42,060 nt of DNA, from IMG/VR virus record IMGVR_UViG_3300009537_000052, one strand, 5' to 3'. The notes below the pieces were generated by a model. That model ran no database searches, was not told the DNA's origin, and was given only the letters and a program-made list of their open reading frames with translations. Source of the stretch: a virus. Positions 3,325 to 42,060 of the stretch are shown here, one piece after another; the stretch's first letter is position 1; each line of letters begins with the position of its first letter. Made by a program: the position numbers and the translations under genes.

Positions 3325-3600
3325 TCAGCCCTCCTTGCGCCGGGCCCTTGGCCTGCGCCGCTTCGGCTTCTCGCCCAGCTCCTGCGGCCCCTTCGCCGGC
3401 GGCGACTCCGCAGGGCCGGGCGATTCCTCCTCCGCCGGCGGCGTCTCCGCCGGGCCGGGCGATTCCTCCTCCGCCGGCGGGAACGCCGCCAGCCCGAGCT
3501 CGACCATGCGCGCGGCGCGCACTTCGTCGACGTCGACGACATCGCCGGCGAGGCGCTTTCCCCGTTCCTTCGAGAGCACCACCTGTACGAGCGTCGTCAT
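3325..3600 (-). CDS. Small protein with a beta-rich N-terminus, a Pro/Glu repeat linker and a poly-Arg/Lys C-terminal tail
   Basis: MTTLVQVVLSKERGKRLAGDVVDVDEVRAARMVELGLA...PPAEEESPGPAE x2...KPKRRRPRARRKEG. It is a paralogue of 6401..6634. Confidence 0.65.
   Translation of the reverse strand: MTTLVQVVLSKERGKRLAGDVVDVDEVRAARMVELGLAAFPPAEEESPGPAETPPAEEESPGPAESPPAKGPQELGEKPKRRRPRARRKEG
3394..3480. repeat. 39-bp tandem repeat, 2.2 copies (in frame, encodes PPAEEESPGPAE[T/S])
   Basis: Units 3394-3432 and 3433-3471 differ at 2 positions. A partial third copy (cgccggcgg) follows. Confidence 0.9.
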
Positions 3601-16506: not shown

Positions 16507-16731
16507 TCAGCCCGCCCGCTTCCTTCGCCCGCGGCTGAACTCGTTGGCGGCCGAGCACGTCGCGAAGTGACTCACCATCGCGGCGCGGTTGCGCTCGCAG
16601 ACGGGATCTCCGGGGCCGAGCCCATCCACGTTGTAGACCGGGGGCCGCGGGTCGAGAGGGATCTTCTTCCCGTCCGGGTCGGTCGCCCACACGATGGACA
16701 GCCCACAGCCTCGGCACACCGATCGCTTCAC
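16507..16731 (-). CDS. Small zinc-finger-like phage protein (74 aa)
   Basis: The GTG at 16731 overlaps the RuvC stop (GTGA). [27 protein letters not shown]...[12 protein letters not shown]; the CxxC...HFxxC pattern is common in phages. Confidence 0.65.
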
Positions 16732-17252
16732 AGCTCCTCCTCCCTCGCCTTGCGCCGCGGCGCGATGGCGTTGTTGACCCGCGCCCACTCGGCGATCCAC
16801 AAGGCGTCGGCTACCGCCTGGTCCTTCACACGCGACAGCTCGACCCAGGGCCACCGCTCGCGTGCCGCGGACAGGATCGCCCGCTTCCGCGCCCCGCGTT
16901 CCTTCGGGCGCCCCTTGCCCCGCAAGGCCAGCGCCACCCACTGAGTGGGCGGCACCAGCACGGTCGGCAGGCCGAGCCCCATGCACACGCCCCGGGCGCA
17001 TCCCCAGGATGCGCCGAAGCTGAACGAGGCCGGTCGACCTTCCCCCGGCCGTGATCGCACCATCTCGATCGCCACCAGAAGGCGTGACACCCCGAGCGCG
17101 GCCGCGGGCTCCGCGAGAACCTCGACGAGCCGCGACGGGTCGCCCGTGTCGACGATTGCACCGCCCACGTGGGGGCCGTTGATCCAGGCCACCGCCCCAG
17201 TCTTCCCCGGGTCGACCCCCAGCACGCACGGCGCGTCCTCCCAGACCATCAC
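16728..17252 (-). CDS. RuvC-family Holliday junction resolvase
   Basis: [15 protein letters not shown] carries the first catalytic Asp motif. VAIEMV follows, and the C-terminal [14 protein letters not shown] is typical of RuvC-like resolvases. Confidence 0.82.
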
Positions 17253-18523
17253 CCAGTCGCCTCCTGCCGCCGCTCGAGCTCCTGCAATGTCTCGCGCAGT
17301 CGCTCAACCTGCTCGGGGTCGGGGGGCCACCTCGCCCCCGAGCGTTTCCACCGCCCCCGCAGGTCCGAGGCGATCCACTCGCGGTCGCCCTCCTTCGCAG
17401 CCAGCCATCGCTCCGCGCTCTCCAGGAGCATCGAGAGCACGGTGTGGCGCACCGAGAGCTCCTCTCCCGGGCGCTGCCGGGTGGCGCGGTCCTCCTGCTC
17501 GCGCCATCGCGTCGCCGCCTCGAGGCGATCGCCCCACCGCAGCGGATCGCAGATCGTCACGACCTCGCTGGAGCGGTCGCGGCCCTCGGGCCAGCCCTCG
17601 GCGCGGAGGTCGCGAGCGAACTTCGGATCGGGGCTCGCCCTCGCCGCGGCCGCCACGAGCTGGACGTCCTCGACGAGCTCTTCGATCGGCGGGCGATCGA
17701 GCGCCTTCCACAGCTGGAGCACGCGGTTGGCATCGGCGCCGACCCGCCGCTGCAGGACGGGACGGCCGCGGATCGAATGCATGATCGTGAGCACGCCGGC
17801 GGCGCACCTCCACGGCGGATCGATGCCAGAGCCGTGCGACCACCGCGGAAGCGGGAGCGTCGGCTCTTGCGTGACCCAAGAGCGATCCTCTGGGACCTCT
17901 TCGGGTGCCGTGTGTGTGCTCAGGAGCGCCCGCGCCCCCGCAGCCGTGCCCGCGCCCGCGCTCACACACTCCGAGGTGGGTGTGGGTGTGGGTGTGGGTG
18001 TGGGGGAGGGAGAGGGTGCGGGAGGGCTCGCCGCGGCGGCGACGTGTCGACGACGTGGCGCCGACGTGGCGCCGACGTGGCGCGGGCCGCTGGGCGCCGG
18101 GGCGGCGACGTGTCGCCGCTTCAGCTCTCCGACCGGGTCGGCGGGGCAGGCGTGCGCGGCGTCCCGGATGTCCTCGTAGCCGACTTTCGCACCGCGGCGT
18201 TCCATCTCCTTGACCAGGCGGTCGAGGACGTACTTGGGCGCGTTGTCGTAGAGGTCGTGGATGACGAGCTGGCCGTCCTCGGCGCGATCGAGGAAGCCGG
18301 CCGCCTCCAGCTCCACCACGAGGGCCTCGGGCTCCCCCTCCCACCCGAGGTGGTACTCGAGCTCGATAGCGTCACCGACCACCGGGTCGCCCTCTGCGTA
18401 GGCGAGGTGCCACATCAGGGTGAGACCCCCGGCCGCGACCGGACGGCAGTTCTCGACGCCTCGACGCTTCAGGCCGGCGCACAGGCGCCGGAACTTTCTA
18501 TGCGAAAGCAGGGTCTCCCTCAC
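17249..18523 (-). CDS. Replisome-organiser / replication-initiator-like protein (424 aa)
   Basis: The N-terminus looks like a winged helix: FRRLCAGLK...[20 protein letters not shown]...[28 protein letters not shown] low-complexity centre ([10 protein letters not shown]) follows, and the C-terminal domain resembles phage replication C-terminal domains. SD AGGAGG lies before the GTG at 18523. Confidence 0.55.
17976..18005. repeat. Hexanucleotide microsatellite (gtgggt) x4 plus one imperfect copy; encodes (PT)5 on the minus strand
   Basis: Read directly from the sequence. Confidence 0.95.
18035..18116. repeat. Iteron-like array: cgacgtggcgc x3 perfect and contiguous (18051-18083), degenerate copies at 18040-18050 and 18106-18116, and a 15-bp direct repeat ggcggcgacgtgtcg at 18035 and 18101
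   Basis: Read directly from the sequence. The period is 11 bp, which is not a multiple of 3, inside the linker of the putative initiator gene. Confidence 0.9.
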
Positions 18524-22465: not shown

Positions 22466-23205
22466 CGGAGCACCGCTAGGCCCTCGGTCACGCGGCCGGC
22501 GAGAAATCCAGCCACGTTGCTGATGGCCTCGAGCTCCCAGAGCCCGTCACACACCAAGTGCAGAGAGATGACGAACCCGCCCTCGCCCTTCTTCGCCCGC
22601 AGCAGGTACTGCGAGACCGGCTGCGTCACCTCGGGGAAGGTCCGGTAGGGAGCGAGCTGCCACGTCGGTGAGACCGTCTCGCGGGCCAGGCGAACGGTCC
22701 CGGCCTTCACCGCCATCTCCTGGCTGATCCCGTCGTCGGCCACCCTCACCTCGTCCTGCGTCGACACCCGCGCCAGGAGCTCGAGGAGCTCGGCGCGCTG
22801 CCCCGAATCGGAGCACGCCGTGCGCAGGTAGATCTGCGCCTCCTCGAGGCTCCACCACTGGCCGAACCGGTCGAGCTGGCGCGGCGGCGTCGCCTTCGCA
22901 CGCACGAGACACTCGCGCTTGCGCTCGCGCCGCTTCAGCGGGCCGAGCAACGACACGCTCGTCGGCGACTCCACCCACACCAGGTGACGCGACGGGTCTC
23001 CCTCGCCGCGCTCGTCGACCAAGGCATCGTCGATGTCCGCATCCAGGAAGCCGACGAAACCCTCGAGCGTCGAGAGGACGATGGGGTCCGCGAGGGGCTC
23101 CGCCGGCGGCAGGTAGGCGGGCAGCGTGCTGTACTCGATTCCGCCGAGAACGATCGGCTTCGCCTGCGTGAGCTCGCCGATGTACTCCATCGCTTCTCGG
23201 ATCAC
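22462..23205 (-). CDS. Conserved-looking phage protein of unknown function (247 aa)
   Basis: GTGA overlap at the start and ATGA overlap at the end. The C-terminal motif LAPYRTFPEVTQPVSQYLLRAKK reminds me of DUF2303/YfdQ-type prophage proteins (unverified). Confidence 0.65.
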   Translation of the reverse strand: MIREAMEYIGELTQAKPIVLGGIEYSTLPAYLPPAEPLADPIVLSTLEGFVGFLDADIDDALVDERGEGDPSRHLVWVESPTSVSLLGPLKRRERKRECLVRAKATPPRQLDRFGQWWSLEEAQIYLRTACSDSGQRAELLELLARVSTQDEVRVADDGISQEMAVKAGTVRLARETVSPTWQLAPYRTFPEVTQPVSQYLLRAKKGEGGFVISLHLVCDGLWELEAISNVAGFLAGRVTEGLAVLR

Positions 23206-23549
23206 GAGGCACCTCCGTTCGGCGTCGCCGCGGCGAAGAGGTCGACCTGCCGCGGGTCGTGCTCGTAGGCCACCAGGCGCCGCCCGGTGCCCATGCGCGA
23301 TAGAAACACCCGGCTCGTCGAGGCCACCGGGCCCGCGAGCTTCGTCGAGACCGTCGTCTCGACCTTCGCCGAGCTGCGGTCTCCGTCCGGCCGGAACGCG
23401 ACCTTGATCGTGATCGAGCGGACCTTCTCCGGCTCCGTATTGGGGTCGTCAATGTTGTCGACGACGCGCTGGAGCTCGTCGGCGAAGCGCTCGCGAAGCG
23501 CGCCGTGCGCGAACCCCTCGAGCGTCAGCTCTCCCTCTGCGATGTTCAT
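23202..23549 (-). CDS. Phage protein of unknown function (115 aa)
   Basis: The ATG at 23549 has GGGAGGAG upstream. MNIAEGELTLEGFAHGALRERFADELQRVVDNIDDPNTEPEKVRSITIKVAFRPDG. Confidence 0.65.
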   Translation of the reverse strand: MNIAEGELTLEGFAHGALRERFADELQRVVDNIDDPNTEPEKVRSITIKVAFRPDGDRSSAKVETTVSTKLAGPVASTSRVFLSRMGTGRRLVAYEHDPRQVDLFAAATPNGGAS

Positions 23550-23860
23550 CTCGCTCCTCCCTGCTGCTCCGGTAGGGCGCCGAGCAGCCCGCTGCAGCCC
23601 TTGCAGGTGCAGAGCCGTTCGGCGGCGTTCTCGACGATGGCGACGGACCCCGGCAGGACCTGGCGGTAGCACTCGACGCACCACCACCAGGAGCCAGGCG
23701 TGACCGGCGGGACGGCGTGGCGCGGGTGCCCGCGCGGCGCCGTCCCTTCCCCCTCAGCGGGGGCGTCAGACGGGGCACCATGCGACGGAGTCGGCGGCAC
23801 CGCCTCCTCCACCTCGCCCCTGTGGCATCGGTAGAACGGGATGAGCCCCGGGATCGTCAT
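23546..23860 (-). CDS. Small Cys-rich (zinc-ribbon-like) protein (104 aa)
   Basis: ATGA overlaps at both ends. Cys motifs: YRCH...WWWCVECY...LCTCKGC. Confidence 0.55.
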   Translation of the reverse strand: MTIPGLIPFYRCHRGEVEEAVPPTPSHGAPSDAPAEGEGTAPRGHPRHAVPPVTPGSWWWCVECYRQVLPGSVAIVENAAERLCTCKGCSGLLGALPEQQGGAR

Positions 23861-33149: not shown

Positions 33150-33199
33150 TGGTGCGGCTGGAAGGATTCGAACCCTCGACCTAGAGCTTAGGAAGCTCC
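33150..33199 (-). other. attP-like core: 50-nt copy of the 3' part of a tRNA-Arg(CCU), from the anticodon stem to CCA
   Basis: The minus strand reads GGAGC-TTCCTAA-GCTCT AGGTC GAGGG-TTCGAAT-CCTTC CAGCCGC A CCA. No D-arm or 5' acceptor strand lies upstream. Confidence 0.75.
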
Positions 33200-33234
33200 C
33201 CCAAACGGCTCGGGCGCAGCGGAAAAAGCTATAT

Positions 33235-41900: not shown

Positions 41901-42060
41901 CCGATGCGTCCTGCGATGTCCCGCCCGGCCTCTTGCGCGATCAGGTCCGCCTCGGCCGCCCAGCGGTTCTGCTCCTCGATCGCCGTCCGTCGCACCTCGA
42001 TGAGGTTCTGGCGAATCGCCTCGACGCGCGCCGGGTCGATCAGGAACGGGAGGGGCTCGT
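38903..42060 (-). CDS. Tail tape measure protein, C-terminal part (the gene starts at 1294 across the junction; joined length 4353 nt, 1450 aa)
   Basis: The 1030-aa track ORF is Ala/Glu/Leu/Arg-rich coiled coil. The GTG listed at 41995 is internal, and the frame stays open to the window end. Confidence 0.9.
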   Translation of the reverse strand, partial: EPLPFLIDPARVEAIRQNLIEVRRTAIEEQNRWAAEADLIAQEAGRDIAGRIGGAFRETFSEIVRTGELSFENLFNRLLDVFIDYLGEMLQAWIANQGAMAAASSSGLYGPTQSGGNIGGGGGYSSAGAALGIMAAAVAWVQAEKAKQNYTTGSLTLEGGREDIFASVADQFDALSEALRSIQDTVREVEHLTGGVLASLPKVQINVKKQGEVWAHVWDSAGTHYERVFRSVDEATRWVLATSLRFAEWGGISDDVRSILENADAAGGVEGVLEVLEHLREISTADLQPTTRELRDLEYQFDSFRQQLEELGASGLPAVMEFVGNLQDLRDQIVGVERDEYQERRAAAEEFNAELARIRGEYAAELARLAAALEMSARAAEVAADQEERAARRRSEANRAVGSRGGYETTDITPRGGGPQDLYPAGLPADIQREIDAIRELLGGLPEAIDPADIRRRDRRGQRQAERQAAQQEREQLRDELSGLLREGLGGEIEAARERFAELRERVTDAGFGAAELAEHLGTLAEAEGAALERLAAGVVGEVERFIAGNDIAAQVAALAEQTDGWRESLALLAEQGLITDEVLARLTAGLGEAQQAAQEQMRDDALGRLRGFGQNSDLLRGLNGMRRQAEEIGEELQALFEAGLISEEELEGYRRRLAHIVRRESQETVTAEAQSAVLYLLQALGRTKEAAEFSYKLKVAEMQVQLAELRIAEEKFGLDLDIVDEYERLLREFKEKGPPKPGDVVPPTLPGTGAGSYSEFITNFEQLLTSVRSFMGGGSQLSQAVAYIEQLESFLGGYRDGTRTTHLTQRQIDALELAQEQLLDFYLAAQQGGEGASAFAQELSRINADFEVLRDVFGDTAELTEAYNLALEALNERYLAGIRAFQESLQTSDLAPLTDRARLVNARSLFDEVANAALGGDVDALQRFPEVAQQLLELARGFFAGSTQYDDIFSLVATITDQLLGVDLVNGTGPNLAVFPGADQLNALVGGSATTNEQLFRLGNTSDQQLLALYDLRDEVVQLRSSVDAQQGTLDRLAADLSSSALRRVS
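41962..42060. repeat. Terminal overlap copy 2 (identical to 1-99)
   Basis: Same as copy 1. Confidence 0.97.

Follow-up and report, generated by a model that had tools for sequence, protein, structure and literature searches.

A candidate replication origin made of helically phased 11-bp repeats inside the initiator-like gene of a temperate phage

Introduction

Replication origins are known for very few phages beyond those of model hosts. The IMG/VR virus record IMGVR_UViG_3300009537_000052, a stretch of 42,060 bp with 70% GC that was analysed in full and is hereafter called the window, carries in the middle of a replication-initiator-like gene an array of 11-bp direct repeats followed, in the coding direction, by a tract of C-rich hexamers. 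The question raised by this locus is whether the repeats are the replication origin of the phage, hosted by the gene of its own initiator, or whether they are there for another reason. An initial annotation had proposed the former, i.e. an intragenic iteron origin bound by the product of the gene, on the precedents of lambda O and SPP1 gp38, and the literature agrees with both precedents as they were given. We report here that the repeats are, as judged from a comparison of diverged loci, very probably DNA selected to bind a protein, and that they probably constitute a phage replication origin inside its own initiator gene, of the lambda O/SPP1 G38P kind.

Results

The 11-bp periodicity belongs to the DNA

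The array is made of five copies that start at positions 18040, 18051, 18062, 18073 and 18106, i.e. at spacings of 11, 11, 11 and 33 bp, and that read GCG(C/A)CACGTCG on the coding strand. On the plus strand, in register from 18040, CGACGTGTCGA is followed by three CGACGTGGCGC, an 11-bp spacer, an 11-mer containing GGCGG and finally CGACGTGTCGC at 18106. The exact 11-mer CGACGTGGCGC occurs three times in the whole 42 kb, in tandem at 18051, 18062 and 18073, and the copies at 18106 and 18040 differ from it by one and two mismatches, respectively. Tandem Repeats Finder detected this array as an 11-bp unit present 4.5 times at 18035-18083 (89% matches), with a score of 77 that is the second highest among the 55 tandem arrays of the window. 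A 22-bp unit, CGCCGNGGCGGCGACGTGTCG, borders the array at 18029-18050 and 18095-18116, and the 15-mer GGCGGCGACGTGTCG is found exactly at 18035 and 18101; when up to two mismatches are allowed, this 15-mer has five matches against 1.4 expected, a number reached in none of 100 shuffles. Repeat searches thus confirmed the three perfect tandem 11-mers at 18051-18083, the two degenerate copies and the exact 15-bp direct repeat described in the initial annotation. A genome-wide motif scan revealed no second cluster of the array motif. The five copies share one face of the helix.

The array encodes amino acids 136-164 of the protein, between the N-domain and a Pro-rich linker, inside an inter-domain region delimited by the N-domain (approximately amino acids 1-118) and the C-domain (from approximately amino acid 216). 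The five copies are read in frames 0, 0, 2, 1 and 0, and each of the three perfect 11-mers falls in a frame of its own, indicating that the periodicity belongs to the DNA. The earlier statement that a repeated peptide does not explain the 11-bp repeats therefore holds, with one refinement. The peptide RHV does recur three times at an 11-residue spacing (R137, R148 and R159), because three 11-bp units make a 33-bp super-period, and it is a by-product of this super-period, not a selected peptide repeat.

Helically phased repeats occur at the same place across the family

An exhaustive HMMER search of 1.84e9 representative proteins retrieved 1530 homologues of the initiator-like protein at E<1e-3. 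For a family-wide analysis of the DNA we used 40 viral-contig loci, retrieved with an N-domain alignment, and as a replication set 16 loci from metagenome-assembled genomes (MAGs) of Planctomycetota, Acidobacteriota, Myxococcota, Chloroflexota, Armatimonadota and Patescibacteria. These loci are diverged, since the median pairwise identity of their N-domains is 47% and exceeds 80% in only two pairs. The phasing statistics that follow refer to a first set of 40 loci, composed of 39 viral-contig loci and the window.

Direct DNA repeats were found in the 200-260 bp following the N-domain in most loci. In 21 of the 40 loci the local repeat score exceeded that of at least 99% of the other windows of the locus, and in 25 that of at least 95% of them. 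Exact repeat pairs of at least 9 bp amounted to 1.78 per 200-bp window after the N-domain against 0.11 elsewhere, a 16-fold difference. The offsets between repeats lay within 1 bp of a multiple of 10.5 bp in 68% of cases, compared to 18% in the background and 23% under a uniform expectation, while offsets that are multiples of 3 accounted for 35% after the N-domain and for 60% elsewhere in these largely coding loci. The spacing of the repeats is thus a helical phasing and not a codon phasing. Examples are GACATGCGGCG, present three times at 11-bp spacing in locus L004, GGCAAACGTCG, present at least three times at 11 bp in L025, CGGTCAGTGAC, repeated at 11 bp in both L021 and L026, and AGCAAACGG, repeated at 10, 21, 22, 31 and 32 bp in L022. 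The MAG set shows the same offsets (10, 11, 21, 31, 32, 42, 52 and 63 bp). Altogether, about 45 of 57 loci contain three to nine copies of one 8-mer at spacings of 10, 11, 21, 22, 31, 32 or 42 bp.

The commonest core, CAAACGG, reaches 3.26 per kb in the repeat zone against 0.068 per kb elsewhere in the loci (48-fold), and it is read in frames 0, 1 and 2 in 21, 23 and 4 cases, giving QTA, ANG or SKRK peptides. These data bear on the idea that the repeat exists for the protein, with the RHV-containing linker peptide as the selected feature. RHV at amino acids 137, 148 and 159 would be the trace of such a selection, but three perfect DNA copies read in three frames yield unrelated residues, a single DNA core encodes three different peptides in the relatives and the offsets are not enriched for multiples of 3, so that we hold this explanation to be extremely unlikely.

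The type of repeat also follows the type of protein. When the loci were sorted by eye into repeat classes, the class tracked N-domain similarity (identity of 52.6% within a class against 44.6% between classes, permutation p 2e-4), and the GACGGA class coincided with a CxxC...CxxC Zn-ribbon insert located after the N-domain, which is present in 8 of 8 members of this class and in 0 of 32 loci of the others. Loci of the Zn-ribbon subfamily are L001, L007, L019, L024, L027, L031, L045 and L046.

The 11-mer outside the family, and slippage

We looked for close relatives of the window in which the copy number of the repeat could be compared. A word-index search with the whole initiator protein returned only the protein itself, tblastn against 50,697 phage records gave no match, and looking up the exact protein sequence revealed no second contig that encodes it. 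As for DNA pattern scans, the 22-mer CGCCGNGGCGGCGACGTGTCG is absent from viral contigs and is present in metagenomes in seven unrelated contigs, which are otherwise dissimilar to the window and thus of no use for a comparison of copy number. The 22-mer forms tandem arrays of five to seven copies of a near-identical 11-mer (CGACGTGGCGC or CGACCTGGCGC) at approximately 2010-2075 in L061 and 1075-1150 in L066, two unrelated GC-rich metagenome contigs, where they lie in intergenic DNA after ordinary cellular genes.

Repeats of this type could be neutral products of slippage in a low-complexity, disordered linker, with no function at the DNA level. The linker is clearly of low complexity, three copies are perfect, three units of 11 bp keep the frame and the same 11-mer is found in tandem in unrelated intergenic DNA, all of which is what slippage would give. 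However, slippage alone leaves several points unaccounted for: in-phase copies dispersed at 21, 31/32, 33 and 42 bp, an unchanged location in 56 diverged genes, a shared core that is strongly enriched and read in three frames, and a repeat class that goes with the protein subtype. For these reasons we regard neutral slippage as a quite unlikely origin of the repeats. Slippage could also have been put to use, as a contingency switch in which adding or removing one unit would change the reading frame, so that a protein reduced to the N-domain is made and acts as a regulator. Although the unit length, which is not a multiple of 3, and the three perfect tandem copies would suit such a switch, the dispersed or imperfect copies of most family members cannot slip, no copy-number variants were found (nor a close relative among the searched records) and a phage initiator would be an unusual target for phase variation. 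We therefore judge this second possibility very unlikely.

A conserved C-rich hexamer tract follows the repeats

Next to the array, amino acids 166-183 are encoded by a hexamer tract, which Tandem Repeats Finder reports as GTGGGT present 7.8 times at 17976-18022. On the plus (template) strand, 17978-18026 contains nine runs of at least three G and is the strongest G-quadruplex motif of the genome, as no other site has more than four runs; the GC skew of the tract is +0.6 and its GC content 68-78%.

In most members of the family the repeats give way to a (Pro-X)n linker whose codons are strikingly uniform. Pro is encoded by CCC in 160 of 173 cases in the first set and 69 of 72 in the second (229 of 245, or 93%), against approximately 32% in the rest of the genes. 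Ala is encoded by GCT or GCA in 118 of 123 and 49 of 49 cases (167 of 172, 97%), against approximately 27% in the rest, and never by GCG. The same holds for Thr, which is encoded by ACT or ACA in 28 of 34 cases in the first set and 15 of 16 in the second (approximately 27% in the rest of the genes, for the first set only). This uniformity is observed across loci of 51-75% GC, and no such bias is seen in ten Pro-X stretches located elsewhere in these loci (CCC in 7 of 32 and GCW in 2 of 14 codons). GCT and GCA are moreover mixed within single tracts, which argues against a simple slippage of one unit. At the DNA level the unit of the family tract is CCC-RC-W, leading to G3N3 runs on the template strand, and a template-strand G-quadruplex motif is present at the position of the tract in 38 of 56 relatives against 0.03 expected. 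It is thus well supported that the tract is constrained as DNA family-wide. The initial annotation had seen a slippage-prone microsatellite here: the hexamer repeat is real, and the codon usage reveals a constraint on the DNA throughout the family.

What the tract does is more speculative. Our conjecture, which we put forward tentatively and which may well prove wrong, is that the conserved (CCC-RC-W)n tract is selected as DNA, takes the place of an AT-rich unwinding tract and acts in origin function while also encoding the linker. It might be a strand-asymmetric element whose template-strand G-quadruplex aids opening or helicase loading, or alternatively a periodic single-strand binding element comparable, by analogy, to DnaA-trios. 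A literature search found no paper linking G-quadruplex motifs with phage iteron origins. A palindrome of the lambda type was also considered after the tract, and the candidate, an inverted repeat at 17910-17969, was rejected as it folds no better than shuffled sequences (z = -0.2).

The protein is built of two modules, the first with a predicted fold similar to that of replisome organisers

The homologues fall into two independent modules, an N-domain (amino acid 2 to approximately 115) and a C-domain (approximately amino acids 224-350). The C-domain is present in 54 homologues, most of which have a different N-terminal domain, or none, ahead of it. This two-module build is as expected of an origin-binding initiator. 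In three loci (L041-L043) the same C-domain is preceded by unrelated N-terminal domains, with short tandem DNA repeats of period 11, 12 or 18 bp between the domains and no CCCRCW tract.

Sequence profiles give little indication of function. The protein matches PHROG 9474 'replication initiation protein' (E 3.7e-7, 31 bits, amino acids 1-110 against positions 6-112 of a 288-position profile), a name that is an annotation only and not an experimentally based function. In Pfam, the initiator protein matches no family at E<=1 except for a spurious low-complexity match, and 50 N-domains, 26 C-domains and 10 full-length homologues match nothing at any accepted threshold. Phage_rep_O, the family of lambda O, matches 0 of 50 family members and does not match the query either, and no match to plasmid Rep families was found for the query or the family members. 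Phage_rep_org_N (PF09681) gave a single match among 50 members at E 0.075, below any threshold, and the family is thus not a member by sequence. A word-index search with the N-domain profile returned 16 unnamed proteins devoid of annotation. According to these searches, the N-domain defines a large family that has no Pfam model.

Structure prediction was more informative. With a 50-sequence alignment, AlphaFold2 models the N-domain with a pLDDT of 91.9 and a topology H-H-H-E-H-H-E-E-H whose last helix ends at approximately amino acid 115. A Foldseek comparison with BFVD, a database of predicted viral structures, retrieved as best matches uncharacterised phage proteins (E 1.5e-5, TM 0.77), and also a 'Primosomal protein 1', a 'Replisome organizer' (E 2.8e-4, TM 0.71) and the Phage_rep_org_N protein of Streptococcus phage Abc2 (E 8e-3, TM 0.59). 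In the PDB, profile and Foldseek searches with the N-domain gave weak generic matches to winged helices of the MarR/MecI type, none of them significant. The N-domain is thus predicted to be a winged helix, with a fold similar to that of phage replisome organisers. The C-domain is modelled as all-helical (pLDDT 91.7); it has no Pfam family and no fold match in the PDB by Foldseek (all E>3). Among the latter, a match to lambda P at E 5.9 was dismissed as noise.

The start of the gene also deserves a comment. The public protein for this gene has 388 amino acids and starts at M37. Since the homology of the family begins at residue 2 of the open reading frame (ORF) that starts with GTG, the GTG at 18523 would be the start rather than M37, and the deposited gene model probably lacks the first 36 residues, in the region 18415-18523.

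Genomic setting and replication context

The coordinates of the features are collected in Table 1. The first 99 bp of the window are identical to positions 41962-42060, an assembly overlap from which we conclude that the assembly is circular and that it represents a complete phage genome of approximately 41,961 bp. The presence of genes for an integrase, a repressor-like protein, a CII-like regulator, TerS, TerL and a portal protein indicates that this complete genome is that of a temperate phage. The initiator gene is flanked by the CII-like regulator on one side and by RuvC, HNH and terminase genes on the other, and it occupies the lambdoid position of a replication module. The RuvC-like gene overlaps the stop codon of the initiator by 4 nt and stands in the slot that a DnaB helicase occupies in many relatives.

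Table 1. Features of the initiator-like locus in the window
Feature	Position	Strand	Description
Iteron array	18040..18116		Five in-phase 11-bp copies of CGACGTG(G/T)CG
C-rich hexamer tract	17975..18025	minus (coding)	CCT CCC GCA CCC TCT CCC TCC CCC ACA CCC ACA CCC ACA CCC ACA CCC ACC
Initiator-like gene	17249..18523	minus	424 aa, GTG start; N-terminal winged-helix domain, linker, C-terminal helical domain
N-terminal domain, winged helix-turn-helix, presumed iteron-binding module	18170..18523	minus	aa 1-118
C-terminal all-helical domain, presumed partner-recruiting module	17252..17878	minus	aa 216-424, conserved core aa 224-350
RuvC-like Holliday-junction resolvase gene	16728..17252	minus	PHROG 1770, E 3.9e-20

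In the relatives, the ORF directly downstream of the initiator encodes a DnaB-family helicase in 14 of 50 homologous loci (among them L004, L006, L011, L012, L014, L017, L024, L031, L046, L049, L054 and L056), often with a 4-nt overlap between the two genes. Pfam DnaB_C was found in the two downstream ORFs tested, at E 1.5e-83 and 6.2e-85. Other loci carry at this place IstB/DnaC-like or other P-loop ATPases; L001 has an RNase H-like gene and L003 a different ORF of 341 amino acids. No helicase, primase or polymerase was found among the approximately 35 ORFs of the window that were scanned, and within this range the earlier remark on the lack of a helicase or primase gene stands. The phage would consequently depend on enzymes of its host, for which the distinctive C-domain is a plausible recruiter.

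This context helps to weigh a further explanation, in which the repeats are binding sites for the same or another DNA-binding protein of the phage, serving autoregulation or another form of control of the initiator gene, and the origin lies elsewhere. Helical phasing and conservation at the DNA level speak for the binding of a protein and not for the firing of an origin, no AT-rich unwinding element adjoins the repeats, and SPP1 gp38 itself binds a second site, oriR, away from its own gene. Yet the motif forms no second cluster in the genome, the family precedes DnaB- or DnaC-like genes and matches replisome organisers in its predicted fold, and operators are normally located at promoters and not in the middle of a coding region. 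We thus consider a purely regulatory role to be unlikely.

Other features of the window were recorded. An ORF at 23202-23753 (minus strand) matches PHROG 997 'replication terminator' (E 5.9e-23). The top score of Tandem Repeats Finder in the window (161) belongs to a 39-bp unit repeated 2.3 times at 3390-3480 (94% matches), in the structural-gene half of the genome. A weak Rfam tRNA match at 33153-33217 (minus strand; 32.1 bits for a gathering score of 29), in which ARAGORN finds no tRNA, is located approximately 1.2 kb from the integrase gene and could correspond to the tRNA fragment of an attachment site. An Rfam search of the initiator locus gave no RNA family.

Discussion

The initial proposal of an intragenic iteron origin bound by its own product gains support from the comparison, through the phased repeats, the fold and the DnaB context, whereas binding and origin activity are what we infer from these. 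The closest precedent is lambda, in which the O-binding iterons and an AT-rich tract lie in the middle of gene O, as the repeats of the window lie inside its initiator gene. In both cases they fall in the DNA encoding a linker, which joins an N-terminal part that binds DNA to a C-terminal part that binds a partner (both presumed activities in the window), and in lambda additional iterons simply add residues to the O protein. The phage of the window is also temperate, and its module stands between CII-like regulators and the genes for recombination and packaging. In contrast, lambda has four iterons of approximately 19 bp and an AT-rich unwinding tract where the window has 11-bp units and then a C-rich hexamer tract, the protein of the window has no sequence relationship to O (no Pfam match), and a RuvC-like gene follows the initiator instead of a P-like loader gene.

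The comparison with SPP1 leads to a similar balance. G38P binds the direct repeats of oriL within its own gene 38, the modelled N-domain has fold matches among proteins that bear the names replisome organiser or Phage_rep_org_N, and a DnaB-type helicase gene follows in many relatives, as G40P does in SPP1. However, SPP1 possesses an AT-rich unwinding element and encodes a loader and a helicase, none of which was found in the window, with approximately 35 ORFs scanned. In iteron plasmids (RepA, pi, TrfA), a winged-helix initiator binds phased direct repeats and the host helicase is recruited; the iterons are typically of 17-22 bp and lie outside the rep gene, with an AT-rich unwinding element and DnaA boxes. 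The window shares with these plasmids the tandem direct repeats in helical phase and, by prediction, the winged-helix protein, but its unit is 11 bp and intragenic and its protein has no plasmid Rep match in Pfam. Winged-helix monomers of the OmpR/PhoB type bind head to tail on direct repeats one helical turn apart. This one-turn geometry fits the 11-bp tandem array, although OmpR and PhoB are transcription factors with receiver domains and no homology between them and the protein of the window was found. The locus thus departs from the known kind in two respects, its one-turn iterons in GC-rich DNA devoid of an AT-rich tract and its conserved C-rich hexamer tract.

If the repeats are an origin, this origin would be composed of the 11-bp iterons and the adjacent C-rich tract, in the DNA that encodes the disordered inter-domain linker. 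Early transcription from the lysogeny-control region through the gene would produce the initiator, whose N-domains would occupy the five in-phase sites head to tail, all on one helical face, and build a complex similar to the O-some. The neighbouring DNA would then be destabilised, possibly at the strand-asymmetric (CCCRCW)n tract, and the C-terminal domain would recruit the replicative helicase or the loader of the host, because the phage encodes none. Protein binding, unwinding, helicase recruitment and origin firing are all proposed here from comparison.

Several observations weigh against an origin at this place. No AT-rich unwinding tract adjoins the iterons; the array is on the contrary the most GC-rich stretch locally (80-85% GC in 60-bp windows across it, for a genome mean of 70%), and over the whole family the mean GC dips by only 4-6 points in the iteron zone. 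The cumulative GC skew of the window has no inflection at the locus and is uninformative. The iteron sequence of the window differs from the common cores of the family, its three perfect copies could reflect recent slippage, and the searches described above (protein index, phage tblastn, exact-protein look-up and DNA pattern scans) found no close relative for a comparison of copy number. The same 22-mer, arrayed in tandem in unrelated intergenic DNA, indicates that such arrays can arise without an initiator, and, since repeat class and protein lie in one gene, shared descent would by itself account for part of their co-variation. Finally, the case for initiation at the repeats is a comparative one. 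With these points taken into account, an intragenic origin is still what we regard as the probable function of the repeats.

Such an origin would provide a rule at the sequence level for finding origins, in which a winged-helix N-domain is followed by repeats 10-11 bp apart and these by (CCCRCW)n. This rule would cover an initiator family that is devoid of a Pfam model and counts at least 1530 representatives; its members occur in viral contigs and in the prophages of several poorly cultured phyla, among them Planctomycetota, Acidobacteriota and Myxococcota, for which few replicons are available to build genetic tools. One stretch would serve both as coding sequence and as cis-acting DNA, the linker peptide being whatever the iterons encode. 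The locus finally raises the question of how a GC-rich origin opens without an AT-rich tract, and whether the tract of G runs and C runs is the element that does so.

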